Notes under the pieces: generated by a model
Database searches by the model: none
Told to the model about the DNA's origin: nothing
Seen by the model: only the letters and a program-made list of their open reading frames with translations
Part shown: positions 37,013 through 59,880 of the stretch, one piece after another
Layout: each line of letters opens with the position of its first letter
Position numbering within the stretch: the stretch's first letter is position 1
DNA from: a phage
Sequence record: OZ346201.1
Reading direction: 5' to 3' (one strand)
DNA length: 64,000 bases
Program-made: the position numbers and the translations under genes

Positions 37013-37095
37013 TTGGAATACTCATGCACCACCAGATGGTGAAGCGTGGGTGGTACGATGAAGGTGTTCGTCGTATTATTTATTACCATAAATAA

Positions 37096-37361
37096 CATTG
37101 TGGCTTCATAGAGTAATCTATGTCGAATAACCTCTTTAACTGCGGGAAGCCTAAACCTTATGGCAAGGTAATCCGCAACGAAGCGCTCAAAAGAGCGAAC
37201 GCTCAGAGGCCATTCCGAAAGGAAGTAGACCAGCAAGTGCGGTCGAAATGGGAGGATTCCTGTGGTTGCTTATCATAGGAATATGAGATGGTCCGATCCT
37301 ACGTGAAAACGTATGGCTATGCACGTAATGGTGCGGGTAGCTTAACGACCTACCTGAACTA
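37096..37361 (+). other. intervening segment inside the split DNA polymerase gene (intron or insertion candidate)
   Basis: Lies between the polymerase body and the ORF carrying the Pol A C-terminus; stops in the relevant frames; contains a ~52-codon ORF (MSNNLFNCGKPKPYG..). Confidence 0.4.
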
Positions 37362-45653: not shown

Positions 45654-45966
45654 TACTTGAAAATCCCTGGCATATCAAGTGTAAGGAGGATTTCTAAAAT
45701 GGATTTCCTCCTTTTGATATTTCACCGGGCCAGATATTTTAAAATTCTTAGAAAATCAGAAAATGGATCGAAAACTAAAATGGATTTTTCAAGACAGGCA
45801 CGATAAGATGTGCTGCTCATTCTATCGTTCGCACCGTACTTTAAGTCACTATTCCAGATTTTTCCGCACATACTCTCACCCTTCTACCAGAACTTTCCCA
45901 GCTTACCTCTGACCTTTTATAACAATAAGTCCATTATTATCAGAAAGTTTCGGCACATCTCTTTCG

Positions 45967-46140
45967 GTACTCGATCTGTTTTTCATTTCAAAGACCTGAT
46001 TTTCTGAAAATTTTTCTCGATAAATTTCTTAGTACTCGATCTGTTTTTCATTTCAAAGACCTGATTTTCTGAAAATTTTTCTCGATAAATTTCTTAGTAC
46101 TCGATCTGTTTTTCGTTTTCTGAATCGGATTTTCTGGAAA
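45967..46140. repeat. tandem 65-bp direct repeats (two exact copies plus degenerate copies), iteron-like
   Basis: Unit GTACTCGATCTGTTTTTCATTTCAAAGACCTGATTTTCTGAAAATTTTTCTCGATAAATTTCTTA at 45967-46031 and 46032-46096, then diverged copies with GATTTTCTGG / AAATGGATTTT submotifs. Confidence 0.85.
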
Positions 46141-46321
46141 TCGTTCCAGCTCTCGACCTGAAATTTTTGGGGACGAAATCGATTTTTCGTTTTCAGAAAT
46201 GGATTTTTAAAATTTCTATATGGGAATATTTTATGGGATACTGTTTTATAGGAAATTGTTACGGAGGGTAATTAGCATGCTAATTAAATTTATTAAATGC
46301 GAGGAGTTCTCATTTAGAATT

Positions 46322-46535
46322 TTGAATGATAATCATTCTCGTTTGCAGAATAACGGGCAGGCCCGGTGATTGTCTCCCGGCCCCTACTGCCCCGGCTTGT
46401 TATTATAGTATCACACAGGACAAAGAAAGCAAGGATTTTTTGCATAAATTTTTAAATGATAATGATAACCGTTCTCATTTTATGCAGCGCCCATCCCCGG
46501 TGGTTGTCTCCCCCGTCACCGGTGCCTGCCGTCCT
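46322..46535 (+). other. two copies of a conserved GC-rich structured element (candidate RNA structure or protein-binding site)
   Basis: AATGATAAT..GCAG..GGGCAGGCCCGGTGATTGTCTCCCGGCCCC at 46322-46395 and a diverged copy at 46452-46535; nested hairpin GGGCAG..CCGG-loop-CCGG..CTGCCC; third copy inverted at 56134-56162. Confidence 0.45.
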
Positions 46536-46735
46536 TTCGATAGGTATATCGTGCCACCTGGCGGGGCCGCTGTCAACACTTTTCAAAAAATTTTTCTAAC
46601 CTGATGCGCTAACCGCTGCAACCTGGCGGGGTCAGCCTGGCAGGACCTAACTGACCGGGTAGGAGAGAATGAAGGCTTGTAAACCTGGTGGGCCTATGCT
46701 ACAGGATAGGTAACAATTGAAGAGGAGGTACAAAA

Positions 46736-46903
46736 ATGAAAGGTAATATGATCCCCCTAGAAAATGTAGCTATTAATGACGCTGAGGCTATCGCCCTGGT
46801 TGAAAAGGCTATGGCGGGAGCGTTGGAACATAAAGAAGAGTACGAAAAATGGTGGTTAACCTGGCGGGGGCGGCAGGTGGATTCTATCATAAAAATAATT
46901 TAA
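46736..46903 (+). CDS. hypothetical small protein (55 aa)
   Basis: ATG preceded by GAAGAGGAGG; below track length cut-off. Confidence 0.4.
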   Translation: MKGNMIPLENVAINDAEAIALVEKAMAGALEHKEEYEKWWLTWRGRQVDSIIKII

Positions 46904-46911
46904 AATAGTCG

Positions 46912-46939
46912 TTGACAACAAGGTTAATCATGGTATTAT
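46912..46939 (+). promoter_or_regulatory. sigma70-type promoter
   Basis: AAAATAGTCG-TTGACA-N16-TATTAT. Confidence 0.6.
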
Positions 46940-46989
46940 TACCCTACAAGGTGAACAACACCGCACTAACCAGTAAAGAGGATAAATTT

Positions 46990-47187
46990 ATGAACGCATA
47001 CGGGATCAAAGTACGTCGCAACACTCGCCAGGTGGTCACCAATCAAGTGATTTGCCGGGTGGATGTAACCATCAACAACGGGCAAGGCCTTTATAAATTT
47101 CGTCGCGGTCATAGCTATACCCTGCAACAGCTTAATCGTTGCGCCCTGACAAAAGGTCAGATCAACCATTGGTTTAATAAAAAATAA
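46990..47187 (+). CDS. hypothetical small basic protein
   Basis: ATG 46990 with AAGAGGA upstream; track start 46912 would overlap the promoter. Confidence 0.5.
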   Translation: MNAYGIKVRRNTRQVVTNQVICRVDVTINNGQGLYKFRRGHSYTLQQLNRCALTKGQINHWFNKK

Positions 47188-47190
47188 GTA

Positions 47191-47219
47191 TTGACATACA
47201 GTCCGACACCAAATACACT
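47191..47219 (+). promoter_or_regulatory. sigma70-type promoter
   Basis: TTGACA-N17-TACACT. Confidence 0.55.
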
Positions 47220-47251
47220 AAAAGCACAAAAGACACTAAGAGGATAAAATC

Positions 47252-47650
47252 ATGAAAACCACTACCTTTAATTTTGATAATGCAGACTTTTCTTTTTCTG
47301 ATGTCAAGAACTGCCGCCGTGATCGTGGATTTTACAAGGCTTATAATCTGGTGGGCCTGGACGATGACAATAATTTGCACGAAGTAGCTGAGATCCGGTA
47401 TTATGCCGCCGCCAGCGGTAACACTAACTACTGCGTTTTTTGGATACACGACAACAAGAACAATAAGTACGGTTATACTGGTGGCAAGGCGAGCGGTCAC
47501 GGTTACGATAAAGCTAATGCAGCACTTGAGAGCGCATTAAATGCTATGGGGATCACTGCCAACGGCTGGATCTATGAAGAAGAGTTTTTGTCGGCACTTG
47601 CTGACCACCTGGGCTATAAAAAGCACATTGTAACATGCGCCCACGAATAA
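47252..47650 (+). CDS. hypothetical protein
   Basis: 132-aa ORF, SD AAGAGGA. Confidence 0.55.
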   Translation: MKTTTFNFDNADFSFSDVKNCRRDRGFYKAYNLVGLDDDNNLHEVAEIRYYAAASGNTNYCVFWIHDNKNNKYGYTGGKASGHGYDKANAALESALNAMGITANGWIYEEEFLSALADHLGYKKHIVTCAHE

Positions 47651-47656
47651 AAATTG

Positions 47657-47684
47657 TTGACACGCTGCAAAATTCAAGTAAACT
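47657..47684 (+). promoter_or_regulatory. sigma70-type promoter
   Basis: TTGACA-N16-TAAACT. Confidence 0.55.
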
Positions 47685-47732
47685 AGTCACAAAAGGCGGG
47701 AATGTTTCCCGCCAACACAAAGGAAAAAGATC

Positions 47733-48137
47733 ATGAATAAGAACGTACGCCGCATCATGAACGAACTGGCAAACGATGAAAAAATTATTGACATGCATTT
47801 GATCAACATTTGCCGCCGTTGTGTAACATACAACAACCGCGCCGCAAAAGCGCGTGAGATGAACGCAAAAGGCACCTTAAAGCCATTCCAGGTGGTGGTA
47901 AAGGCCATTAAAGATGTAACTAATACGGCAAACCAGGTACAGGGGAACACCAACGAGAGTACCAATATTGATCCGGCTTACATCATGAAACGGATCCGGA
48001 CCTGCAAGAACAAAGAGCAAGTGTATAATGTCATAGACTGGTTGGATTCTATGGGCGATGTGGTGTACAATAGATTCTCGGCAGCTATTGAGATCCAGCT
48101 TGACAGGTTAGACGGTAAAGTACTTAAAACTTACTAA
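47733..48137 (+). CDS. hypothetical protein
   Basis: 134-aa ORF, SD AAGGAAA. Confidence 0.55.
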   Translation: MNKNVRRIMNELANDEKIIDMHLINICRRCVTYNNRAAKAREMNAKGTLKPFQVVVKAIKDVTNTANQVQGNTNESTNIDPAYIMKRIRTCKNKEQVYNVIDWLDSMGDVVYNRFSAAIEIQLDRLDGKVLKTY

Positions 48138-48138
48138 A

Positions 48139-48185
48139 TTTATTTTTAGATGGCCTTGACTCCAGGGCCATCAATAAAGTAAATT
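48139..48185 (+). repeat. repeated intergenic element, copy 1 (promoter-like hairpin)
   Basis: TTATTTTTAGATGGCCTTGACTCCAGGGCCATCAATAAAGTAAATT; stem ATGGCC/GGCCAT with TTGACT in loop. Confidence 0.8.
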
Positions 48186-48217
48186 AATCTCAGCTAAGCG
48201 AAAAAGGGGGCTTTAAG

Positions 48218-48337
48218 ATGAGCACTACACGCCAATACACAAAGGTAACTATTATCGCCTGCGTTGTCGGTTACATCCTGGCGCAAATGTTAATGAGTAG
48301 CGCTAACAGTTTTGCAAAATTTTTCTTAAATTTTTAA
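48218..48337 (+). CDS. small hydrophobic peptide (39 aa)
   Basis: ATG after AAAAGGGGG; single predicted TM segment. Confidence 0.35.
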   Translation: MSTTRQYTKVTIIACVVGYILAQMLMSSANSFAKFFLNF

Positions 48338-48365
48338 TTGACAAGCTAACTTAGATTGATATACT
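48338..48365 (+). promoter_or_regulatory. sigma70-type promoter
   Basis: TTGACA-N16-TATACT. Confidence 0.65.
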
Positions 48366-48416
48366 TAAACACGTAAACGGGAAAACTTCCCAGAACACAC
48401 AAAAGGAGAAAACACC

Positions 48417-48758
48417 ATGACTACTATGGCCGCCGCAGAAAAAGCTATTCAGATCGCCGCACTGAAAAAACAGATCGCAGACCTTGAGAACAAGATCGAT
48501 AACTTTGAAATCGACGAGGACAAGTACGACGAAAACTATGATGAATGGTTAGACGAGATCTACGGCGAAATTATGATCGGAAACATTTCTTTTCTTCCGT
48601 CGCGTATCCTCAAGGAGCTAGATCCTATCGCTTACCGCTGCGGATTTAGCGACTACATCGACAGCCTGGATATTGAGGACGATGAAGAATACCAGGAATT
48701 ACAGACAGAGTTAGAAGAAGCAAAAGAAGAGCTTGCAGAACTGGAAGAAAACGAGTAA
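48417..48758 (+). CDS. highly acidic coiled-coil protein (DNA-mimic candidate)
   Basis: 113 aa with dense Asp/Glu runs (..DIEDDEEYQELQTELEEAKEELAELEENE*). Confidence 0.55.
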   Translation: MTTMAAAEKAIQIAALKKQIADLENKIDNFEIDEDKYDENYDEWLDEIYGEIMIGNISFLPSRILKELDPIAYRCGFSDYIDSLDIEDDEEYQELQTELEEAKEELAELEENE

Positions 48759-48760
48759 GA

Positions 48761-48805
48761 TTATTTTTAGATGGCCTTGACTCCAGGGCCATCAATAAAG
48801 TAAAC
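48761..48805 (+). repeat. repeated intergenic element, copy 2
   Basis: Identical core to copy 1: TTATTTTTAGATGGCCTTGACTCCAGGGCCATCAATAAAGTAAA. Confidence 0.8.
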
Positions 48806-48847
48806 TTTATACTGTTAACACTGAACTAATGCATAGGAGTTAAAACC

Positions 48848-49093
48848 ATGGCAGCACTAATCACCAAATATTATGCCCCTACCAACACCAAAAGCGCCCG
48901 TATCATGGTAAAAGGCTTCGGACGTAAAAAGGTGTACACCTGGGATTATGCCTTAGACACGGAAGACAACTACACCAACGCGATGACCGATTTTATTAAT
49001 GATCTGAACACGCGGATCTTGACAAATTATAAAATTACCGATATTGCCTATATAGGGGAAGGCGGGATCTGTTTTGTCGGTATCGTCAAATAA
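48848..49093 (+). CDS. hypothetical small protein
   Basis: 81-aa ORF. Confidence 0.5.
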   Translation: MAALITKYYAPTNTKSARIMVKGFGRKKVYTWDYALDTEDNYTNAMTDFINDLNTRILTNYKITDIAYIGEGGICFVGIVK

Positions 49094-49140
49094 GCTGTTT
49101 TTTCGGTGGTCCTGGTAGCAGGGCCATCTATAAAGATAGT
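49094..49140 (+). repeat. repeated intergenic element, diverged copy
   Basis: ..GGTGGTCCTGGTAGCAGGGCCATCTATAAAGATAGTTTA.. keeps CAGGGCCATC-ATAAAG core. Confidence 0.5.
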
Positions 49141-49168
49141 TTATCAATACAATGAAAGGAGAAAGTAC

Positions 49169-49522
49169 ATGATCAGCGGGGCAAGTTTTATTATTGGCGC
49201 TATTGCTACGGCTTTAATTGTAAACAAGATCCAATCTAAAAACGAAAAAGATAGCAACGCCCTTACAGAATACCCGTTTTGGGTATTCAACGACAATGAA
49301 GACTATATTATCAAGTACAAGAATGAGAAGGGCGACCAGGTAACACCGCGACCGATCCCGGCTTACAAGATGCAAGAAACACTATACCGCCTAAAGGCTG
49401 GAGGCGCAAAAATCGTAGACTTTTGGGGATACGATCACACAGATCAGGAAGTTATAAAGCGCCGTATCCGGGCTATTCAGGCCAATATTGAAGTTAGCAA
49501 GGGGGGAATATATGAAGATTAA
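49169..49522 (+). CDS. membrane-anchored protein
   Basis: ATG 49169 with AAAGGAGAAAG upstream; N-terminal TM helix. Confidence 0.5.
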   Translation: MISGASFIIGAIATALIVNKIQSKNEKDSNALTEYPFWVFNDNEDYIIKYKNEKGDQVTPRPIPAYKMQETLYRLKAGGAKIVDFWGYDHTDQEVIKRRIRAIQANIEVSKGGIYED

Positions 49523-49709
49523 TTTTGAGAAGATTGTAAAGCGATCTCATGCTTCCGAAGAGCTGCCGGAACGCCGCCAGCGCAACAATAAACTGAATAA
49601 GCCAAAAAGATTTGGGAAGATCTGGCGGAATCATTATGATCGCAAATTACCGGGCCTGCTTTTGGAACGTGAACGACAGGCGGAACGATACCGCCACAAA
49701 GGCAAATAA
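49512..49709 (+). CDS. small basic protein
   Basis: 65 aa, Arg/Lys-rich; ATG 49512. Confidence 0.45.
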   Translation: MKINFEKIVKRSHASEELPERRQRNNKLNKPKRFGKIWRNHYDRKLPGLLLERERQAERYRHKGK

Positions 49710-49717
49710 CAACCAAC

Positions 49718-49745
49718 GCCCCGCCATTGTGCGGGGCTTTTTATT
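49718..49745 (+). terminator. rho-independent terminator
   Basis: GCCCCGC-CATTGT-GCGGGGC hairpin followed by TTTTTATTT. Confidence 0.85.
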
Positions 49746-49890
49746 TCTATCCTACGAATAGCGCCCCTGGTTGGCCCTGTAAGCGCCAAAAAGGCCCCAC
49801 CTATGCAATCGCCCACCTTTAACCTGAAAACATCGCTTAGGGCCGTTTTATGGCGTTAAAAATATCATTGACAGTGATTTTATTTAAAGC

Positions 49891-49918
49891 TTGACATCTT
49901 AAACAGGTTAGCTATACT
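49891..49918 (+). promoter_or_regulatory. sigma70-type promoter
   Basis: TTGACA-N16-TATACT; second TTGACA 23 nt upstream. Confidence 0.65.
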
Positions 49919-49952
49919 AACCACATCAAAGAGAGAGAAAGGAGTAAACGCC

Positions 49953-50213
49953 ATGCGTAAATTAAAAAATTTTGATAAAGTTGATGTTGTCCTGAATAAT
50001 TTTTACTACTGCAACAACAAGGCCATTTGGTGGCGTGATAGTTCCACCGATAAAGTCAAGGCGCGCTTTCTCCAGGGGCACTGGCAAGGCCGCCCAGTGA
50101 TTAAAATCATGGGGCAATTGGTAGCGTTTAAAAATTGCCGCCGTGTTGATGACGTTGAAGAGATCTTGAATATTTTACGCCACAATAATTTAAAAAATAG
50201 TGTTGACAAGTAA
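49953..50213 (+). CDS. hypothetical small protein
   Basis: 86 aa, SD AAAGGAG. Confidence 0.5.
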   Translation: MRKLKNFDKVDVVLNNFYYCNNKAIWWRDSSTDKVKARFLQGHWQGRPVIKIMGQLVAFKNCRRVDDVEEILNILRHNNLKNSVDK

Positions 50214-50230
50214 ATCTCAATAAGTATACT
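50203..50230 (+). promoter_or_regulatory. sigma70-type promoter
   Basis: AAAATAGTG-TTGACA-N16-TATACT; overlaps stop of upstream gene. Confidence 0.65.
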
Positions 50231-50287
50231 TAAGCACACAGGCGGGAAGTTTTCCCGCCACTAACAAAGAAAATAGGAGAAAATATC

Positions 50288-50911
50288 ATGACCACCGTTA
50301 ACATTACCACAGGTTGCAATTTATCTTTCGACGTGCTGACCGACGAACAAAAAGAAAAAGCTGTTGAAATGGTCCGCGAAAGAGAAGAACACAGCGGGGA
50401 TAACTTTTTTGCAGAAAGTGTAATTGAATACTATAAAGAATATGTTTTTCCAGAGTACGGGCTTGAAGATACCAAGGTACAGTGGTCCGGCTTTTGGTGT
50501 CAAGGCGACGGCGCATCAATTAGCGCTGAAAATGTAAACTTAGAAAAATTCTTGCGTAAGGTTAAAGCGCTTACAAAATTTCGCTCAATTAGACACTTGT
50601 TCGGCACAATGCACGATGGCGAACTATCAGCCAGCGTTGAACGTATCCCGTTTAGCCATTATCATCACGAAAACACAATAGGCGGGTGCATCGATACCAA
50701 CTGGCTAGACCTGACCACCAAGCAAGAGGATAAAATTGAAGAGCTGGAAGAGCTGATCACCGAGACGGTACGGGAGCTATCCCGCAAGGTTTACGTAGAC
50801 CTGGAGCAGGCCTATCTTGAACAATTCACTACCGAAAACCTGATCGGCCTTATCGAGGCCAATGATTGGCGGTTTGATGTGGATGAGTATGGCGAGATGA
50901 CTTTTTCATAA
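50288..50911 (+). CDS. acidic hypothetical protein
   Basis: 207 aa, Glu/Asp-rich, SD AGGAGA. Confidence 0.55.
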   Translation: MTTVNITTGCNLSFDVLTDEQKEKAVEMVREREEHSGDNFFAESVIEYYKEYVFPEYGLEDTKVQWSGFWCQGDGASISAENVNLEKFLRKVKALTKFRSIRHLFGTMHDGELSASVERIPFSHYHHENTIGGCIDTNWLDLTTKQEDKIEELEELITETVRELSRKVYVDLEQAYLEQFTTENLIGLIEANDWRFDVDEYGEMTFS

Positions 50912-50918
50912 ATAAAGT

Positions 50919-50946
50919 GTTGCAATAACCTAAAAACCTGCTATAT
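50919..50946 (+). promoter_or_regulatory. sigma70-type promoter (weaker -35)
   Basis: TTGCAA-N16-TATATT. Confidence 0.45.
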
Positions 50947-51000
50947 TAAAACTCAAGGGGCAAGACGTTTGCCCCCACACAAAACAAAGAGGAAAACATC

Positions 51001-51381
51001 ATGAAAAACACTACTAAAGCTATTGACACCGTTATGTTTAACCTGGTTACCTTTCGCGAGGATATGAAAGATCTTCCACGTGAAACAGTGTGCGATCACA
51101 TTGAAAACTATCGCAAACTAATCAAAGAGTTGCCTTTAAAACGTGACCAGTATGCGGCTAACGCCATGCTTAATGCCATGATCAAAAAGATGATTCAGTG
51201 TGATTTAACTCTGGCCTATGACTATGCGGGTGGTCGTTTTGCAGTATACAATCAGCCCGTGCCCGGTATGGGCACCACCGAAGAATTGCACGCGCTCAAT
51301 CTAAAACAAGACGTATGGGATAACATGCCCCGCGTGGTGGTGTGGGCAGAAAGCGGAAAGATTTACGGCGATAATTTTTAA
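51001..51381 (+). CDS. hypothetical protein
   Basis: 126-aa ORF, SD AAGAGGA. Confidence 0.55.
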   Translation: MKNTTKAIDTVMFNLVTFREDMKDLPRETVCDHIENYRKLIKELPLKRDQYAANAMLNAMIKKMIQCDLTLAYDYAGGRFAVYNQPVPGMGTTEELHALNLKQDVWDNMPRVVVWAESGKIYGDNF

Positions 51382-51390
51382 TCAGGTAAC

Positions 51391-51417
51391 AGGCGGCATA
51401 TTTGCCGCCTTATTGTT
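51391..51417 (+). terminator. hairpin terminator
   Basis: AGGCGGCA-TATT-TGCCGCCT followed by TATTGTT. Confidence 0.55.
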
Positions 51418-51445
51418 AAACAGAGTTGCAAAAGAGGTACATAGA

Positions 51446-51817
51446 ATGGAATTTATTATTTTGGCTGTAGTAGTTGCCTTGTTCAACGCCTGGATCGCTG
51501 GCAAGATGGGTAGATCCGCCTTTTTATGGTTTATTATATCTATTTTCCTGGGGGTGGTTGCAACTATTGTACTTGTTATCCTTGCAATTGTTGACAAGGG
51601 GAATAATAGAAAGGGTAAAGTATTTTCAGACCTGTACGACGCTCAAACGTTTGTCAACGCCTATTATAGTGATCTTCCAGTCTCCCTACGCTGCAGCCTG
51701 GCACAACAAGTTTTCGATGAGGCTAAAACCAGAGATCAAGCCCATGAGATATGTTTAACTGAGGCGGATCGCCTATTTGAGAGGAATAGAAAATATGTGG
51801 GCCAACCGTTTAAATAA
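51446..51817 (+). CDS. membrane protein (two predicted TM helices)
   Basis: MEFIILAVVVALFNAWIAG.. and FLWFIISIFLGVVATIVLVILAIV; ATG 51446 with AAGAGG upstream. Confidence 0.5.
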   Translation: MEFIILAVVVALFNAWIAGKMGRSAFLWFIISIFLGVVATIVLVILAIVDKGNNRKGKVFSDLYDAQTFVNAYYSDLPVSLRCSLAQQVFDEAKTRDQAHEICLTEADRLFERNRKYVGQPFK

Positions 51818-52040
51818 TGCCACGTTAATTAATCCCTTTAGTGAAGATTTGAAGCCAGCCGCCTGGCGTGATGGATTCAATAACGAACGCTTTATTTTCA
51901 AGCCTGATCTTGAGGAATTTTATAACAATGGATCGAACAACAGCGGAGATAATTTTTCTTGGGATGTGCGTGGTGATGGTACTCCTGGGGGCCATTGTAA
52001 ACCACGTCACTACTACCAGGAGGAAAGAGGGAGACGATGA
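51795..52040 (+). CDS. hypothetical small protein
   Basis: ATG 51795 with GAGAGGAA upstream; overlaps end of previous ORF. Confidence 0.4.
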   Translation: MWANRLNNATLINPFSEDLKPAAWRDGFNNERFIFKPDLEEFYNNGSNNSGDNFSWDVRGDGTPGGHCKPRHYYQEERGRR

Positions 52041-52156
52041 CAACCAAGGATAAGCCCCGTACCGATAAGGCGCGCCGGGTTATGGTATGGCTTGAGATCA
52101 TCGCCCTTGAAATATTGCTAGGCGTAGGGATGTACTTTATCGCTGTAAGTAACTAA
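52037..52156 (+). CDS. small hydrophobic peptide (39 aa)
   Basis: ATGA overlap with upstream ORF; C-terminal TM segment; followed by terminator. Confidence 0.35.
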   Translation: MTTKDKPRTDKARRVMVWLEIIALEILLGVGMYFIAVSN

Positions 52157-52160
52157 GAGC

Positions 52161-52188
52161 GGCCCCCGATCATGGGGGCCTATCTTTT
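52161..52188 (+). terminator. rho-independent terminator
   Basis: GGCCCCC-GATCAT-GGGGGCC followed by TATCTTTT. Confidence 0.75.
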
Positions 52189-52209
52189 AAAAAATTTTTC
52201 TTCCGGGGT

Positions 52210-52238
52210 GTTGCAATCCGGTCCGGAATGTGGATAAT
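52210..52238 (+). promoter_or_regulatory. sigma70-type promoter (weaker -35)
   Basis: TTGCAA-N16/17-GATAAT. Confidence 0.45.
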
Positions 52239-52294
52239 AACAATCAACGGGGAGCTAATCCCCACCACCACAAAAACCAGAAAGGAGAAACAAA

Positions 52295-52495
52295 ATGAGC
52301 AACAATATCCGCGTTATTAACTTCAAAAAAGAAGAAAAAATTGCCGTGCTGATTGACGGTCAAGAAATCTTCAAGGGCGACTATGAAGATCATCAAACGG
52401 CGATTAGTATCACTCGCGTGATTGGTTATCATAATTTCTACCCCCAAGGCGCTGAGGCAGCAGTTAAACGAATCAAAGAGATTGTAGGCCTGTAA
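52295..52495 (+). CDS. hypothetical small protein
   Basis: 66 aa, SD AAAGGAGAAA. Confidence 0.5.
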   Translation: MSNNIRVINFKKEEKIAVLIDGQEIFKGDYEDHQTAISITRVIGYHNFYPQGAEAAVKRIKEIVGL

Positions 52496-52548
52496 AATTT
52501 ATTTTTAGATGGCCTTGACTTCAGGGCCATCGATAAAGTAAATTTAAA
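52496..52548 (+). repeat. repeated intergenic element, copy 3
   Basis: AATTTATTTTTAGATGGCCTTGACTTCAGGGCCATCGATAAAGTAAATTT; two substitutions relative to copies 1 and 2. Confidence 0.8.
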
Positions 52549-52588
52549 CCCTGTTAAAATACCACGCAGTTAACAAGGAGTGATAGAC

Positions 52589-52888
52589 ATGTTTATCCAG
52601 GCTAATAATCTTTATTTCTTTGATGGTCAGATCGTAGATGGTGTGGAAGTGGAGATCACCGGGTGCCCTGGCGGTCAGGCTATGACTTTTCGGAATAATG
52701 CCTTTGATGATTCTCATATCGTTATGAGAATGGAAGTTACGAAGCTGGACGACAAGAAAACACTTATTGACTATTCTGTGAAAGATCATCCAGACTACCG
52801 CATGATCCATGGTGATTTGTGCATTGTTGACCGTGACAAGGTGGGCGGCATTGTGATCGCTATTGTGAACGATGTTTTCTCAAACTAA
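52589..52888 (+). CDS. hypothetical protein
   Basis: ATG 52589 with AAGGAG upstream. Confidence 0.5.
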   Translation: MFIQANNLYFFDGQIVDGVEVEITGCPGGQAMTFRNNAFDDSHIVMRMEVTKLDDKKTLIDYSVKDHPDYRMIHGDLCIVDRDKVGGIVIAIVNDVFSN

Positions 52889-52905
52889 TTTCAGCAGGCG
52901 ATTTT

Positions 52906-53256
52906 ATGAAAGTCAAACTATATTACCTTAATGAGCTTAACCCCCTTGCCCAGGTCCGCGCCCTAGCTAATACCTTGATTTGTGAGAAATCTGTATATTG
53001 TGTTGAGCTTAACGCCATGCGTGAACGTCTCAAAGGTGGTTACTTTGACATCCATGCTGCAATCAACGGCCTGAATATGGAATTTATACGCTTACGTAAC
53101 AGCCGCCGGAATCTGGCAAGAATGGAACAAGATCCGGCCCACCTTCGTAAGCTGGTTATTGAAAATCATCTGATGTTTAATGCCGAGGGTGATTATTACC
53201 ATTTTCACCGCAAACGCTGGTACCGTGGCGGCAATACAGGCAAGAATGCAAAATAA
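52906..53256 (+). CDS. hypothetical protein
   Basis: 116-aa ORF; followed by AGGCCC..GGGCCT hairpin and a strong terminator. Confidence 0.5.
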   Translation: MKVKLYYLNELNPLAQVRALANTLICEKSVYCVELNAMRERLKGGYFDIHAAINGLNMEFIRLRNSRRNLARMEQDPAHLRKLVIENHLMFNAEGDYYHFHRKRWYRGGNTGKNAK

Positions 53257-53291
53257 GGCCCCTAGCAGGGCCTGCAGCAATATAATCACAT

Positions 53292-53326
53292 AAAGGCCAT
53301 GCGGTTGCATGGCCTTTATTATTTTG
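53292..53326 (+). terminator. rho-independent terminator
   Basis: AAAGGCCATGC-GGTT-GCATGGCCTTT hairpin followed by ATTATTTT. Confidence 0.85.
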
Positions 53327-53373
53327 GCGTTACAACGGCATACGGGGCGCTTAAAAAATTTTTAAAGAAGTAC

Positions 53374-53401
53374 TTGCATCATTCCCGACAATATGGATAA
53401 T
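53374..53401 (+). promoter_or_regulatory. sigma70-type promoter (weaker)
   Basis: TTGCAT-N16-GATAAT. Confidence 0.4.
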
Positions 53402-53458
53402 AAGAGTTGTCGAGGGGGAGGCCCCCAATCGTTGACCAGATAGATAGGAGTTAAAATC

Positions 53459-53743
53459 ATGGCTATTGTTACCGCTGGCGATGTAGTAGAAATGGAAGCA
53501 AAATACTTAAAAGCGGGTATGCACATCCTACGGAATGATCAAGAGCTATTATTAACGATGGTTGACTATAATCACGGCCAGGATTATCCAAGCATCGACT
53601 ACTTTTTTGAGTATGTTGATGAAGAGTTGAAAGAGGATGAGGCCTATTGCGGTGAGTTCTGCAACTTCTTTTGTCCTGATGAGGTTGTAAAGGTTATTTA
53701 TCAACCTGGCGTAGCTTTCCCGCTGCACGCTATCAATAAATAA
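53459..53743 (+). CDS. hypothetical acidic small protein
   Basis: 94 aa; followed by ACCTGGCGGGGCC-GAAAA-GGCCCC hairpin. Confidence 0.5.
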   Translation: MAIVTAGDVVEMEAKYLKAGMHILRNDQELLLTMVDYNHGQDYPSIDYFFEYVDEELKEDEAYCGEFCNFFCPDEVVKVIYQPGVAFPLHAINK

Positions 53744-53798
53744 ACCTGGCGGGGCCGAAAAGGCCCCCAATTATGAAAATAAAGAGAGGCAAATCATC

Positions 53799-54032
53799 AT
53801 GATGGAACAAATTAAACGCGCCGAGGCTATTAATGGCAACGTGATCTATTTTGTCAGCAAAAACGAAAAAGGCGTACCATATGCGGCAGTAATAGTACAA
53901 CCTGACGGCGATTATTGGTTTACTGTGTACGGCGCTTATTCTTTTGGGCGTCCAGTGCATGATAAAATTTTGAAAGTAGCGAACCCTACCGGGAAGAATA
54001 TCACAGCAGAAAAATTTTTTGAAAATAGTTGA
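53799..54032 (+). CDS. hypothetical small protein
   Basis: 77 aa; stop codon TGA embedded in the -35 TTGACA of the next promoter. Confidence 0.5.
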   Translation: MMEQIKRAEAINGNVIYFVSKNEKGVPYAAVIVQPDGDYWFTVYGAYSFGRPVHDKILKVANPTGKNITAEKFFENS

Positions 54033-54056
54033 CATGACCATATAAGACTGTAATAT
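54029..54056 (+). promoter_or_regulatory. sigma70-type promoter
   Basis: AAAATAGT-TGACA-N16-TAATAT. Confidence 0.6.
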
Positions 54057-54107
54057 ATAAATCAAAGGGGGCAACGAACCCCACCAACTACAAAGAGGAT
54101 AAAAATC

Positions 54108-54287
54108 ATGGCTATTATTGCAAAGACTGAGATCATAGGCTTAGATTCTATTCTCCTCGCATATGAGGAAGCTATAGAAATGTATGTGGTTTCCTATGGT
54201 GAGTATATCCGTGAATATAAATCTATTGATCTGGCTTTTGAATGTTATATCCGCCAGGTTAATAAAGCGTACGATGATTATCGTTAA
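54108..54287 (+). CDS. hypothetical small protein (59 aa)
   Basis: ATG after AAAGAGGATAAAAATC; just below track cut-off. Confidence 0.45.
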   Translation: MAIIAKTEIIGLDSILLAYEEAIEMYVVSYGEYIREYKSIDLAFECYIRQVNKAYDDYR

Positions 54288-54294
54288 AATAGTT

Positions 54295-54323
54295 TGACAA
54301 CAGCCATCTTACAAAGCATAATA
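54295..54323 (+). promoter_or_regulatory. sigma70-type promoter
   Basis: AAAATAGT-TTGACA-N17-CATAAT. Confidence 0.6.
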
Positions 54324-54374
54324 CATAAGGCGGTGGAATGGTCCGCCACCTGGAACAAAGAAGAGGTAAACACC

Positions 54375-54620
54375 ATGAAAAGCAATAAAGGTTATAACGG
54401 TTACAAAAACAAAACTCATTGGAATGTAAGCCTTTGGATTAATAACGATGAGTCATTGTACCGGTTGGCCCAAGGCTTTATTAACGCCAATGCTAATCGT
54501 AATGATGCGGCGCGGGATATGATGCTTTTTCTGGAGCTAACCGGACAAGATAAGACCCTGGACGGCTTCAAGTACAGCACTACGGCGATCCGTGCCGCGA
54601 TGGTTGGAATGAAACACTAA
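54375..54620 (+). CDS. hypothetical small protein
   Basis: ATG 54375 with AAGAGGTAAA upstream; track start 54294 would overlap the promoter. Confidence 0.5.
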   Translation: MKSNKGYNGYKNKTHWNVSLWINNDESLYRLAQGFINANANRNDAARDMMLFLELTGQDKTLDGFKYSTTAIRAAMVGMKH

Positions 54621-54697
54621 AAGCACATAGCTGCCTTACCCTGGGGCTGTGGTAGCGGCCCCATGAATAAGGTTACTAACAGAAGAGAATAAACACC

Positions 54698-54802
54698 ATG
54701 AAACAGAAATTAATCGATGCAGTGATCTTGGTTATTGCCCTGGGTATTGGCCTGATTGCAACCATGTCTAATATGATCTTGTCTTCCAACGGTATCGGGT
54801 GA
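54698..54802 (+). CDS. small hydrophobic peptide (34 aa)
   Basis: Single TM-like segment; weak SD. Confidence 0.3.
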   Translation: MKQKLIDAVILVIALGIGLIATMSNMILSSNGIG

Positions 54803-54811
54803 GGTTGGCAA

Positions 54812-55027
54812 ATGATCACTAACAAAACAGGCAAAACGGAATTTTTACGCAACTTACAGATCGGCAAGCCTGAGATCTGGTACTGCACTAAAACACCGCG
54901 TGACGAAATGAAAGACTTCACCGCCACGCTGCAACGGGTAAAGATATCTATCACGCAGAAAAAGGCCTTACTAGTGGTGGAAGGGGAGATCCCCCAAACC
55001 GTTGTTATAGTTGATCGTACAGCATAG
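54812..55027 (+). CDS. hypothetical small protein
   Basis: 71-aa ORF. Confidence 0.45.
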   Translation: MITNKTGKTEFLRNLQIGKPEIWYCTKTPRDEMKDFTATLQRVKISITQKKALLVVEGEIPQTVVIVDRTA

Positions 55028-55118
55028 TTTAATTTATACAGATACCTGAAAATTAACCAACAAAGCATAAACAGGCGGTTACCGCCGCCTTAAACGTAGC
55101 AGAAAGAGGATAGGCACA

Positions 55119-55403
55119 ATGAAAAAGATGATCGCAGTGGTTACCCTGGTTGTTGGACTTAATGCGCCTGTAATGGCTAAAGAGCTGGCAAAAGAGGTTA
55201 ATCTAACGGATATTCATGCCGTCAATCAAATCGGGGTTACTTATCGCTTATGCCTTGCCGCTAAAACTTTTAAGGACGGCACAACAGAGTACTACGGATT
55301 CGAGGGTATCCGGTGCGGTGAGCTTGCTCGCGACCTTAAGGAAGATCCAGACCTGGAGGATCTGCCCATAACCGTGAACGGGAAAACTTACGTGAACCGT
55401 TAA
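55119..55403 (+). CDS. secreted small protein (signal peptide)
   Basis: N-terminus MKKMIAVVTLVVGLNAPVMA followed by polar mature region; SD AAAGAGGA. Confidence 0.55.
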   Translation: MKKMIAVVTLVVGLNAPVMAKELAKEVNLTDIHAVNQIGVTYRLCLAAKTFKDGTTEYYGFEGIRCGELARDLKEDPDLEDLPITVNGKTYVNR

Positions 55404-55405
55404 CC

Positions 55406-55540
55406 ATGAGAAAGATAATTATTACCATGGGGATCGTGGCGGCAATGTTGGCGATCTTTCCCTTTATGGTTAGGTATGTGCTGATTAATGTTGTCCTGGT
55501 AGTCAGCGATCTGGTGTTATATATTAACTCATTGTTTTAG
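55406..55540 (+). CDS. small hydrophobic peptide (44 aa)
   Basis: Overlaps stop of upstream gene; two hydrophobic stretches; no clear SD. Confidence 0.3.
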   Translation: MRKIIITMGIVAAMLAIFPFMVRYVLINVVLVVSDLVLYINSLF

Positions 55541-55548
55541 GCGCGATA

Positions 55549-55740
55549 ATGACAGCGGAAGAAGTTAAAAAAGTACTGGCGGTACTGCGTTATCATAATC
55601 ATTGCAAGGTGAAGAATGATCCTGATTATCTTGATTCATCCCTTGAAGAGGATACACTACAAGCCATAAGCAACATGCAAGAATTGCTTAAGCGTATGAC
55701 AGAGAAAAACCGACCGGACTACATAGGGGGTAAAATATGA
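55549..55740 (+). CDS. hypothetical small protein
   Basis: 63-aa ORF. Confidence 0.45.
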   Translation: MTAEEVKKVLAVLRYHNHCKVKNDPDYLDSSLEEDTLQAISNMQELLKRMTEKNRPDYIGGKI

Positions 55741-56048
55741 TCGCTATTACGCCAACCGTTTTAGATTGGTATCGGCAACGCATAGCGCCTCCGCTGGCTA
55801 TCTTCAAAGATGCGGAAGCAAAACAACGCCGGATCTCAATACATGAGATCATCAACCTTAACGCTGGAGGCACACCATACCGCCCAGGACCTGGCCGTGA
55901 GATGGACAATACATTGGCGATCCTGAAGATACGCCGTAAACGGTCCTCCCTTACGCTGGATTCATTACACACAATGCAGTCTCCGTTCCAGGTGACTGGG
56001 AAACGGATCGCCAGGTCCTGGACAAAGGCCAATGACCGGACCGTATAA
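55737..56048 (+). CDS. hypothetical protein
   Basis: 103-aa ORF, ATGA overlap. Confidence 0.5.
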   Translation: MIAITPTVLDWYRQRIAPPLAIFKDAEAKQRRISIHEIINLNAGGTPYRPGPGREMDNTLAILKIRRKRSSLTLDSLHTMQSPFQVTGKRIARSWTKANDRTV

Positions 56049-56183
56049 ATAAAAAGTGTTTTGGTACTGATTTTGGGGTTGACTTGTTCGGCCCCTTTTG
56101 CTATTCTTATTAAACGGGCGGCACTTGGGAACAGGGGGAGACAATCACCAGGCCTGCCTGTCATATAAGAACTATAAAAACCG

Positions 56184-56212
56184 TTGACATCTGCCAGGGG
56201 GTGGGGTAACAT
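56184..56212 (+). promoter_or_regulatory. sigma70-type promoter
   Basis: TTGACA-N17-TAACAT. Confidence 0.5.
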
Positions 56213-56266: not shown

Positions 56267-56539
56267 ATGTCAAGCTGGATTAATCAAGAAGTCGAATCAC
56301 GTTTTAATGCTATTTGGGATCTCATCGAAAAAGAAGACGGCACATCAAGCCCCTACCTCAACAATTTGGAATTCCATTTTGTGGAAGCGATGAACGCAGA
56401 ACATGATCACGAAGGTGGTGCGGACGAGTTCGCTAAAGGGTATGGCTTCAACAATGCCAACGAAATGATCGAGGCGGTTGTACTCCAGGCTGAGGAAGAT
56501 TATCAATTAAAAACGCTTGAATTCTGCCGCCGCAAGTAA
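56267..56539 (+). CDS. hypothetical acidic small protein
   Basis: 90 aa, SD AGAGAGGAAAA. Confidence 0.5.
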   Translation: MSSWINQEVESRFNAIWDLIEKEDGTSSPYLNNLEFHFVEAMNAEHDHEGGADEFAKGYGFNNANEMIEAVVLQAEEDYQLKTLEFCRRK

Positions 56540-57479: not shown

Positions 57480-59880
57480 TCCCCCTACCATAAACGGCCC
57501 TACCTGGCAAGTGGAATAATTGACGAGCCATCAATCCCACACACTGTACAAATATACATGTAAAATAACTATTGCATAACCTTTCATTGTGTGGTAGCGG
57601 TGCTATTTTTTACCTGTTTTCCTTCCAAAATTGCACGTAATGCAGCTATTGCACAAAATTTAACCTGATGCACATCTCCAATATCCTGTCAACAACTAAA
57701 AATCTTTATAAGTCATACACTTACACAGCATCGAAAGCGTGTTCTACGCGAAAAATCGAGTATAACTATAGCCGCCAGATCTCAGAATTCACGTACGCAC
57801 GCCATTCTATAGCCTGCAAAGTATTTATTCCAACCACAGAATAACGGAATAGTCAATACCTGAATAAAATAATTATTCGTTTAAACTGCATAACATAAAT
57901 CAGCTCAGGTGTCAACATTTTTCGTAAACAGTCTGAAATTGTCACTGTGAGTTATCATAAACAGAGAAATCTTTAGTCGTATAATGTTTACTGTACGTTA
58001 CTATACTGACTGGAATCATTAGATGACTAATAGAAAGATAAGAAATAATTAACAATACAATTATTTTACCTGTAACAATAAGACAACTATGCAAACGAAT
58101 GGCATGGCGCGACGGAGTCGCGACATAATATAAAAGCAGTAACCATCACCCCCGTGATGGTTTGTCTGCAATCTATTAATCAGATCATAGTTGCCTTGTA
58201 TTCAGTTAATCATGACATAATAAGCAAGGCAACTATAGATCTGCTAATAGTTGCCCTGCTTTTATATTATGTCATATATTATTAACTTGTTAATTGTTAA
58301 CTTGCTAATTGTTTTCATGCAAACGAATGTCATGGCTTATCCTATCTGTGTAAACAGTTAAGGTGTAAACTATCCAGGCGTAAACAGTCTATGCGGGAAC
58401 AATCTATACGTGAACAGTGAAACATGAAATAATAACAGTCGTTATTGTGTCGAAAGTGTATAAGGTGTCAGACAAGTTTTTCTCCTCTTTGTCAAGTGCT
58501 GCATGAAAAATTTACAAGCTTGTATGGTAGCATTTTTGCGGCCCTGTTTACATTCAGCGATGTATGTATAATCCTTGTTGTGTGGGCGTTTAGACGTCTA
58601 GACGGTCAGAAGTCTGCAGGTTAATACCTAATCTATCGGCTGCTAACTATATCCCACACAAATAGTAAGAAATATAATTGTTATGTGCGTAAACAGTAAC
58701 TCATGTTATCAATCCCTGTATGTATCGCCAGTGGTGCGCATAATGGGTATTATGTTAAATTGCCCGTAATGATAACTATTCTCACAATGATAGGTATTCT
58801 CATTCACTCCCACAAGATAGGTTGCAAATGTTGTGCCACTGTGTGAACGGCCTAACCTATTAATTTGCCTCACTGCCTCGATATTTGAGAATTGTTATAA
58901 GAATGAGAAGTATTCCCATTTCGTCCGCCTGGCAGCACTCCAGTCGCTACCGCTCATGACAGGGCAGAACTAGACCCTCTTCAGATATTTCTGGCTGACT
59001 CTTCAGGTCTGTGTGGGAAAAGCCAACCTCTCCGGCGGCGGGGAGGGGGTCAATTAAAAAAAATTACGTGGTGCATGAAGCGCTCTTCAGGTAAGGCATG
59101 TGTTATGGGATGAAACCCTCTTCAGGCAATGATATTTGTGGGTGTGATATTTGCTGGAAAGCCAGATATGACGGGACTCCTGGCGGGGCAGGGGTAGTAC
59201 AGACAGGGAAAATATGGGGGATGTAGTTGGGGAAATTGATCAGACAGGTAGAGTATGGAATATGTTACAAGTATGTTAAATAGGGAGGATGAATATCTGC
59301 AGGATTTGTGTGTAAAATCAAAGACTTAAGTGGTGTTGTGGTATTTTCTATAAATAATTCAAGTTTAATAGGTAATATTTGTCTCTATCCACTTTGTGTG
59401 GTAAACAGATTCAGATGAAATTGGTTTACAAGTGTATACATAATATACAAATTAAAGATACAAGAAACCCCCCTCCCCCTTCGGCTACCATTCACCTTTT
59501 CCTCTGACTGGTACTTAAACACTTATTCAGACTCTTCAGGTTATCACCCATATATCATATGGCAGTGACTGGTGTCCTCCGGCCCCTCTTTCGTCACCCG
59601 TCCGCTTCGCCATGCTAATGCCATAGCCAATGGTTCGGTTGTTCACTCTGTTCACTCAGGTGTATCTCCATACCCCTTCAAACCGAAGAGACAAAATCCT
59701 AATTACTCGGTAAAAGAAAAGAGAAGAACTTAATTTTATCAGGATAGGCAAGAATGTCAAGGCATGACTGCTCACTAAACAAGCAAACAGTCATGTGTGG
59801 AAGGTAAGTGATTGTGGTGGTGGGAAATTTAGTTGAAAGATGTGTTATAGGTGCGCTTCCAGCACTTTGGCCGGGCAGCT
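57480..59880. other. 2.4-kb ORF-free, repeat-rich region between convergent gene blocks (candidate origin / packaging / control region)
   Basis: No ORF of 60 aa or more on either strand; six CTCTTCAG(G) copies (58.97-60.18 kb); about nine GTAAACAG-like copies (57.9-59.4 kb); inverted TAGTTGCC and GACATAATA motifs at 58.1-58.3 kb. Confidence 0.6.

Follow-up and report, generated by a model that had tools for sequence, protein, structure and literature searches.

A repeated candidate early-transcription cassette with Fur-box-like sequences in an rV5-like Vequintavirus

Three intergenic copies of a GC-rich motif, one of them inverted, lie in the 64,000-nt stretch of phage DNA analysed here (sequence record OZ346201.1; referred to below as the window). 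What kind of element do they represent: coding sequence, as annotated in related phages, a structured RNA, or the binding site of a protein? The best explanation is that the copies are paralogues of a ~100-bp non-coding early-transcription cassette that is kept in Vequintavirinae and Stephanstirmvirinae. To a more specific reading of the sequence we give an even chance: each cassette would comprise an early promoter, a G-rich leader hairpin and a Fur operator, and would produce a short leader RNA gated by Fur.

A repeated non-coding unit and its predicted promoters

The window represents an rV5-like Vequintavirus; its positions 46000-47000 match EdH4, rV5 and many other genomes at 92-97%. Small open reading frames (ORFs) of early type fill the plus strand between 44 and 58 kb, with sigma-70-like promoters and hairpins between them. 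The 23-mer GGCAGGCCYGGTGATTGTCTCCC occurs exactly at 46356-46378 (plus strand; copy 1) and at 56136-56158 (minus strand; copy 3), with 0 occurrences expected (100 shuffles), and the diverged copy 2 was found at 46497-46512 (plus strand) with a 16-nt core and one mismatch. A repeat scan recovered copies 1 and 3 as an inverted pair of 29 nt with 90% complementarity. The three intergenic copies, one inverted, are thus as described in a first-pass annotation of this DNA. That annotation had also noted a duplication of about 60 nt shared by copies 1 and 2; the duplication is real but longer, as the two copies can be aligned over ~95-105 nt comprising the leader AATGATAAT..TTCTC, the motif and an AT-rich stretch beyond it. 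Homology of copy 3 to copies 1 and 2 begins just before the motif, from ATGACAGGCAGG onward.

More than 100 sequenced relatives have kept the copies, with 72-89% identity of the unit across genera. An alignment of the units revealed a primary sequence clearly under selection, consisting of GAGNCAANCACC, then CUGCC(C/U)G, then the operator described below. No host counterpart of the unit was detected among 5,426 E. coli genomes, and no origin of the motif from a tRNA or tmRNA was found. Matches in plasmids were either to the Fur box alone or to a whole rV5-like genome deposited as a plasmid. One such entry, PLSDB CP057073.1, a 137,565-bp "plasmid" from an E. coli isolate of cattle, shows 99% identity to window positions 46290-46420; it is an rV5-like phage genome, and its presence there may point to a carrier state or to contamination.

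A scan of IMG/VR, most of whose other matches look like chance, found an unrelated 46.8-kb contig (IMGVR_UViG_3300027123_000194; loci L013 and L021) that carries at least five copies of GGAGACAAWCACC, each located after a terminator and an extended -10, 23-24 nt past a TATAAT, with a second promoter and a small gene ~100 nt further on. A further IMG/VR scan for more diverse copies yielded almost only Mydovirus-like duplicates. One of these genes has the start region GGAGTAATCACC-ATG. Because the motif takes the same promoter-relative position in this unrelated contig, it appears to have a function of its own.

Copies 1 and 2 are read through by a plus strand ORF (46326-46604) annotated as hypothetical protein (ORF198) in rV5 and many other records, and copy 3 by an antisense ORF on the minus strand (55688-56212) without a PHROG family; the former matches phrog_14993, a family that consists of such annotations. 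As stated in the first-pass annotation, both ORFs contain the peptide TGRPGDCLP. Both are spurious. The ORF198 frame contains two in-frame stops in a 93% identical relative (L019) and is shifted in a more distant one (L025), and its substitutions in five relatives are distributed over the three codon positions as 9/12/11, with no codon-position bias. These data speak against the motif as coding sequence and support the non-coding nature proposed at first.

Every copy, in the window and at related loci (n = 28 instances), was then read on the strand on which the motif is GAGACAAWCACC, here called the sense strand; copies 1 and 2 have it on the minus strand, copy 3 on the plus strand. The best -35/-10 pair upstream of the motif scored on average 8.9/12, compared with 6.1 in shuffles and 7.1 on the opposite strand, and a sigma-70 consensus at a constant position, such as a small RNA gene with its own promoter would have, was present in 28/28 instances. 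The end of the -10 hexamer was always 23-37 nt upstream of the motif in the copies studied here and in ~10 related lineages, while spacers varied. The sense strand was G-rich in 28/28 instances (mean GC skew +0.18).

For copy 1, the predicted promoter (46402-46432, minus strand) consists of the -35 TTGCTT (46432-46427), a 16-nt spacer and the extended -10 TGaTACTAT (46413-46405), which is overlapped by a second -10, TATAAT (46407-46402); at the same position two relatives (L002, L025) have TTGACA-16-TATTAT. The promoter of copy 2 (46548-46597, minus strand) has an UP-like A/T tract (46597-46577), the -35 TTGACA (46576-46571), a 17-nt spacer and the -10 CACGAT (46553-46548), which is CATAAT or CACAAT in relatives. 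Its UP-like tract is the inverted image of the UP/-35 sequence at two plus strand early promoters, and its best sense promoter scores 9-11/12 in the window and relatives. The short repeat AACCTGGCGGGG lies in and around the spacer of this promoter and elsewhere (46556, 46620, 46683, 46858 and 53743). For copy 3, the promoter TTGACT-17-TATTCT with TG (56079-56107, plus strand) was found independently by a promoter scan; its -35 lies in the loop of a terminator-like hairpin (56075-56095; terminator scan) that ends the upstream gene. A second promoter, TTGACA-17-TAACAT (56184-56212, plus strand), directly follows copy 3 and would drive the gene at 56267-56539, which places copy 3 in a tandem-promoter leader. 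In other lineages the unit promoter is TTGCAA-17-TATATT (phiTE, Mydo, POP18) or TTGACC-17-GATAAT (Hena1).

The promoter evidence suggests leftward transcription for copies 1 and 2, opposite to the genes that flank them, and rightward transcription for copy 3, in tandem with the promoter of the gene at 56267-56539. The functional strand is therefore likely the complement of the one read in the first-pass annotation, so that what was taken for a leader ahead of the motif would lie downstream of the hairpin. In many relatives, homology to copy 3 begins at 56096, within the promoter, and the genes upstream differ, which places the cassette on a mosaic junction.

Two further observations concern the corresponding promoters outside Vequintavirus. 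Direct repeats GTAAAG-N4-GTAAAG (equivalent to GTAAA-N5-GTAAA) precede the unit promoter in other genera, just upstream of its -35 (L027, L030, L031, L033, L152, L157, L159), with a spacing typical of CpxR-type response-regulator sites. In place of copy 2, GAP31 (L030, ~12150-12255, minus strand) and Mydo (L031, at the same position) have a second promoter-driven, G-rich RNA candidate of ~100 nt that holds the helix ACCGGGC/GCCUGGU in GAP31 and ACCAGG/CCUGGU in Mydo, and that has no Rfam match.

A Fur-box-like cluster at a fixed distance from the motif

On the sense strand the leader AATGATAAT..TTCTC, just after the hairpin, reads GAGAATGATTATCATTC and contains a perfect central Fur palindrome. 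When scored against the 19-bp palindromic Fur consensus GATAATGATAATCATTATC, the two leaders were the best matches in the window (16 and 15/19), and no shuffle reached 15 or more. The best of all is the Fur-box-like operator of copy 2 (46453-46481), with GATAATGATAACCGTTCTC at 46458-46476 matching the consensus at 16/19 positions. The cluster of copy 1 (46294-46346) contains overlapping registers at 46322-46340 (15/19) and 46328-46346 (14/19) and a second box at 46294-46314. Registers thus start at 46322/46328 for copy 1 and at 46452/46458/46464 for copy 2; overlapping sites in Fur site clusters are offset by 3 or 6 bp (PMC2189734).

Matches of 14-16/19 were also obtained in other lineages. 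In phiTE, phAPEC8, GAP31, Mydo, Hena1, GEC_vB_MG and an IMG/VR contig, i.e. in seven lineages from at least five genera, they begin exactly 19 and 25 nt from the end of the motif. We then built a matrix from 19 phage boxes only and applied it to 26 kb of DNA from E. coli K-12, where nine of the ten top hits fell into the fepA/fes, fepD/entS and fepB/entC intergenic regions of the ent-fep gene cluster, which together make up less than 3% of the sequence scanned. The promoters in these three regions are repressed by Fur. Together, these data indicate that the leader looks like a Fur operator cluster to which Fur is predicted to bind, and the earlier idea of a protein-binding site gains support for this part of the unit.

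The motif and the Fur box are separable, since no Fur box accompanies copy 3 or the copy 1-type unit of L025, while an Aeromonas phage and a 347-kb contig have the promoter and boxes without the motif. A Fur box does follow the units homologous to copy 3 in the Certrevirus CR3 and in POP18.

Outside these units, the 16-mer GAGAATGATTATCATT occurs at no fewer than 120 IMG/VR loci (L034-L151 among them), a count that we estimate to be about the chance level. Its context looks non-random in places: some contigs contain arrays of 2-5 copies, an extended consensus AAATGAGAATGATTATCATTTGCAT is shared, and sites adjoin DnaA boxes (L073, L116) or the parS-like TGTTCCACGTGAAACA (L054, L057, L067). Fur-type boxes may therefore be common in phage control regions.

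The predicted leader hairpin and competing readings

In the reading that we favour, a host sigma-70 promoter would be followed by a G-rich leader of 45-55 nt from about +1. This leader can form an imperfect hairpin that is topped by the nearly invariant motif. In copies 1 and 2, as in the units of no fewer than five further genera, the start of the Fur-box cluster lies exactly 19 nt past the motif. Host RNA polymerase would produce the short hairpin leader RNA early in infection, and iron-loaded Fur (Fe-Fur) bound just past the hairpin would gate the next step. It might do so by blocking read-through into the AT-rich region with 65-bp repeats beyond, or by repressing TTGAAT-N18-CAGAAT, a weak antisense promoter with which the box overlaps. 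In both cases the cassette would act as an iron-responsive node.

The predicted hairpin of copy 1 (46354-46393, minus strand) has the form GGGGCAG..GGCCGG-loop-CCGGGCC..CUGCCC, with the motif GAGACAATCACC at 46376-46365. The hairpin of copy 2 (46484-46529, minus strand) carries the motif GAGACAACCACC at 46510-46499, and that of copy 3 (56114-56161, plus strand) has the form ACGGGCGG...CCUGCCUGU with GAGACAATCACC at 56138-56149. The nested hairpin described at first holds for copy 1, which folds with -27.4 kcal/mol over 69 nt (z = -2.4), but less well for copies 2 and 3 (z = -1.5 and -1.1); the minimum free energy of copy 2 was -20 to -23 kcal/mol, with z between -1.5 and -2.1. Across 11 units from other genera, the closing helix as drawn (AUAGCGGG/CCCGCUAU) and two inner pairs were paired in 87% of cells, compared with 29-55% in a control in which the 3' partner was slid; 15 of the paired cells in the drawn helix are G·U, and only 2/10 helix pairs change on both sides. 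The 3' arm CUGCCCGYYAU is conserved and always pairs with some G-rich 5' arm, whose register differs between genera.

Several results weigh against this reading. Fold z-scores ranged from -2.6 to +1.1 over the 28 instances, and several genera folded no better than shuffles. RNAalifold returned no consensus structure for a MAFFT alignment of 23 units. Covariation was not significant, its score being reached by 148/500 shuffles, and pairing on the other strand was 82%, against the 87% given above. Within Vequintavirus, stem changes are uncompensated (CC to GG in rV5, G to A in Gotham). A terminator scan detected no convincing intrinsic terminator after the hairpin, where U tracts are weak and variable. 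The absence of a Fur box from copy 3 and from the L025 unit also belongs here. At the gathering threshold, the only Rfam match in the whole window was a group I intron at 37080-37315 (RF00028; 64.7 bits, E 4e-14); a permissive search (E up to 10) of 45800-47000 gave nothing credible, and five related loci gave no matches. The structured RNA postulated in the first-pass annotation thus receives weak support from folding and none from Rfam, RNAalifold or covariation, and we regard the hairpin as a plausible but unproven RNA structure.

Most likely, the loop motif is read as RNA by a conserved factor. An antitermination site of the nut/boxB type would combine a boxA with a short hairpin bearing a conserved GNRA-like pentaloop. 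A GACAA pentaloop is predicted in copies 1 and 3, only where the motif is GAGACAATCACC; the variants GAGACAAACACC and GAGACAACCACC, which are common, lose it. Nothing resembling a boxA was recognised. Other roles of the motif were considered. It resembles the start regions of some early genes of the phage itself, e.g. GGAGAAAACACC-ATG, but has no start codon. When 128,000 positions were ranked with a ribosome-binding site matrix made from 77 gene starts, the copies came no higher than 583rd and as low as about 7,000th, so that mimicry of a ribosome-binding site is a weak idea only. Judged by eye against consensus sequences, a G-quadruplex, sites for sigma-54, sigma-32, ArgR or IHF, an ops/RfaH element and a lambda operator half-site did not fit family-wide.

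The alternative that survives best, which we nevertheless consider unlikely, keeps the orientation read at first. A Fur-repressed promoter with the -35 TTGAAT inside the Fur box, an 18-nt spacer and the -10 CAGAAT would start a small plus strand RNA at the GGGCAGG of copies 1 and 2, an analogue of RyhB or PrrF1/PrrF2 whose loop GGUGAUUGUCUCC would be complementary to ribosome-binding regions. The arrangement, with the box overlapping both -35 and spacer, is that of classical Fur-repressed promoters; the TTGAAT-18-CAGAAT promoter scores 8/12 and recurs in the window, GAP31, Hena1, GEC_vB_MG and POP18; and the RNA would begin with the conserved GGGCAGG..GGTGWTTGTCTC as its first 22 nt. However, the second position of the -10 is not the critical A in Mydo (CTGAAT) and phiTE (CGGAAT), copy 3 has no such antisense promoter (best 5/12), and CR3 and POP18 keep CTGAAT-AGC-GGGCAGG although their Fur box has moved by ~30 nt. 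In copy 1 the hairpin is followed on this strand by the U-rich GGCUUGUUAUUAU, which is not conserved outside Vequintavirus. The sense promoter is stronger and was found in all 28 instances. The plus strand RNA could also coexist with the convergent sense promoter, through transcriptional interference or as an antisense pair.

We think it distinctly unlikely that the element acts as DNA, either as the site of a DNA-binding protein beside the Fur operator or as a recombination module like the promoter-early stem-loops (PeSLs) of T4-type phages. Conservation of the primary sequence while pairing does not covary, the fixed spacing between motif and Fur box, the weak palindrome GGAGA-CAA-TCACC within the motif and the mosaic junction at 56096 would all fit such a role. 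A DNA site would need neither the G-rich strand bias nor the constant position after a promoter, and the 5' arm, despite a register that shifts from genus to genus, keeps its pairing with the conserved 3' arm. The neighbouring genes, which have no Pfam match, offer no candidate DNA-binding protein.

It seems improbable that copies 1 and 2 act as tandem promoters that make the primers for a replication origin, with G-rich transcripts forming an R-loop beside 65-bp iteron-like repeats and an AT-rich region of unwinding, in the manner of the T7 phi1.1A/B promoters, T4 oriF/oriG or ColE1 RNA II. The layout suits this proposal, with two tandem promoters, then non-template DNA rich in G clusters, then ~200 bp at 62-74% AT and three to four 65-bp direct repeats (45957-46207), and this 0.7-0.9-kb non-coding arrangement is kept whole in Seunavirus, Mydovirus and an Aeromonas phage. 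On the other hand, the candidate region has no DnaA boxes, IHF cores or GC-skew inflection, which leads us to reject an origin of host type, and copy 3 simply precedes a gene, with neither repeats nor an AT-rich tract.

Finally, we reject as almost certainly wrong that the hairpins are ordinary intrinsic terminators, despite their GC-rich stems and an annotation of the phiTE copy as a terminator, or that the motif is coding, despite the ORF198 records: the terminator scan found none at 46354-46393, 46484-46529 or 56114-56161, the loops are 10-25 nt long, the U tracts are not conserved, copy 3 as a terminator in the orientation first assigned would face a gene-free strand, and the ORF is broken in relatives as described above.

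Surrounding repeats and comparison with known systems

Matches of the neighbouring proteins to PHROG were all to families of unknown function, and no Pfam domains were found in the neighbouring genes. A 63-aa minus strand ORF (46699-46890) was considered as a homologue of the small minus strand gene beside the unit in GAP31, Mydo and the Aeromonas phage 2L372X, and was rejected because it is of low complexity and antisense to a plus strand gene with a strong ribosome-binding site. The repeats adjoining copy 1 (45957-46207) comprise three to four tandem 65-bp units, two of them identical, with GATCGAG; GATCGAG and AAAAAATTTTTTCG motifs occur at the equivalent position in GAP31, Mydo and 2L372X. 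A 50-nt terminator/promoter cassette is present four times (48136-48185, 48757-48806, 49092-49141 and 52495-52544) as a hairpin GATGGCC-TTGACT-..GGCCATC with the -35 in its loop, resembling the PeSLs of T4-type phages.

A 1.5-kb non-coding region (57850-59400) contains a dif-like XerC/XerD site at 58733-58760, GGTGCGCATAA-TGGGTA-TTATGTTAAAT. Both 11-bp arms are identical to those of E. coli MG1655 dif, and the central 6 bp have two differences; GAP31, a Cronobacter phage of another genus, shares the arms but not the centre (L030, position 24017). The homologous stretch of phage Gotham lies inside its annotated 459-bp terminal repeat (PMC7471380), so that window positions ~58471-58929 are probably a direct terminal repeat. 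The site could serve XerCD-mediated circularisation or dimer resolution in a virulent phage. Directly after it, and inside the probable terminal repeat, are three Fur-box-like sites (58766-58806 and 58900-58922; 16-23 bits with the phage-box matrix). The same 1.5-kb region contains four to five direct repeats of GTAAACAGT (58350-58420 and 58690), an 18-nt perfect inverted repeat (58122-58139/58256-58273) and 26-nt direct repeats (58173/58233), which look like iterons or packaging signals.

These sequences invite a wider, tentative and rather doubtful idea. A large set of virulent enterobacterial myoviruses, comprising Vequintavirinae, Stephanstirmvirinae and more distant phages, might directly read host iron through Fur operators wired to a new class of promoter-proximal hairpin RNA, possibly involved in replication priming, with the same operators placed in the terminal repeat beside a host-type dif.

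In the literature library searched, nothing relevant was found on the motif, on small RNAs of Vequintavirinae or on Fur boxes in (lytic) phages. Fur operators and promoter/stem-loop cassettes are already known kinds of element, but their combination in virulent phages, with conservation across genera, seems not to have been described before. rV5-like phages find wide use in therapy and biocontrol, and the region is called a hypothetical protein in dozens of deposited genomes. If Fur binds to the boxes, these strictly lytic phages would depend on available iron for their early transcription or replication, which would bear on phage performance in the gut and in infected tissue, where iron is scarce. 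Conservation of the motif across genera and its presence in an unrelated contig point to a sequence-specific reader.

The predicted boxes resemble the Fur operators of iucA, fepA-fes and entC-fepB in their 15-16/19 matches, their perfect central AATGATAATCATT and their registers 6 bp apart, and the phage-box matrix recognises genuine Fur-regulated promoters. In classical Fur cases the box overlaps the promoter of an iron-uptake gene, whereas here the boxes are located downstream of a strong promoter and hairpin in a virulent myovirus. RyhB and the tandem PrrF1/PrrF2 of Pseudomonas are small RNAs repressed by Fur. Like them, the phage units are short and non-coding, have an adjacent Fur box and are tandemly duplicated; unlike them, they have their better promoter on the opposite strand and no clear terminator, and they share neither sequence nor Rfam similarity with them.

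The nut sites of lambda, boxB of P22 and put of HK022 are RNA hairpins shortly after early promoters, located in opposite orientations on the genome. The phage units likewise have their hairpin soon after an early promoter, with a GACAA pentaloop as in P22 boxB possible in copies 1 and 3, but they come without a boxA or a known N-like protein. The PeSL cassettes of T4-type phages, reportedly described by Arbiol and colleagues in 2010, shuffle early genes. PeSLs and the units described here are both repeated promoter and stem-loop modules between small early genes, at mosaic junctions. The present units differ from PeSLs in having the hairpin after the promoter, a loop sequence that genera share, and Fur boxes in addition.

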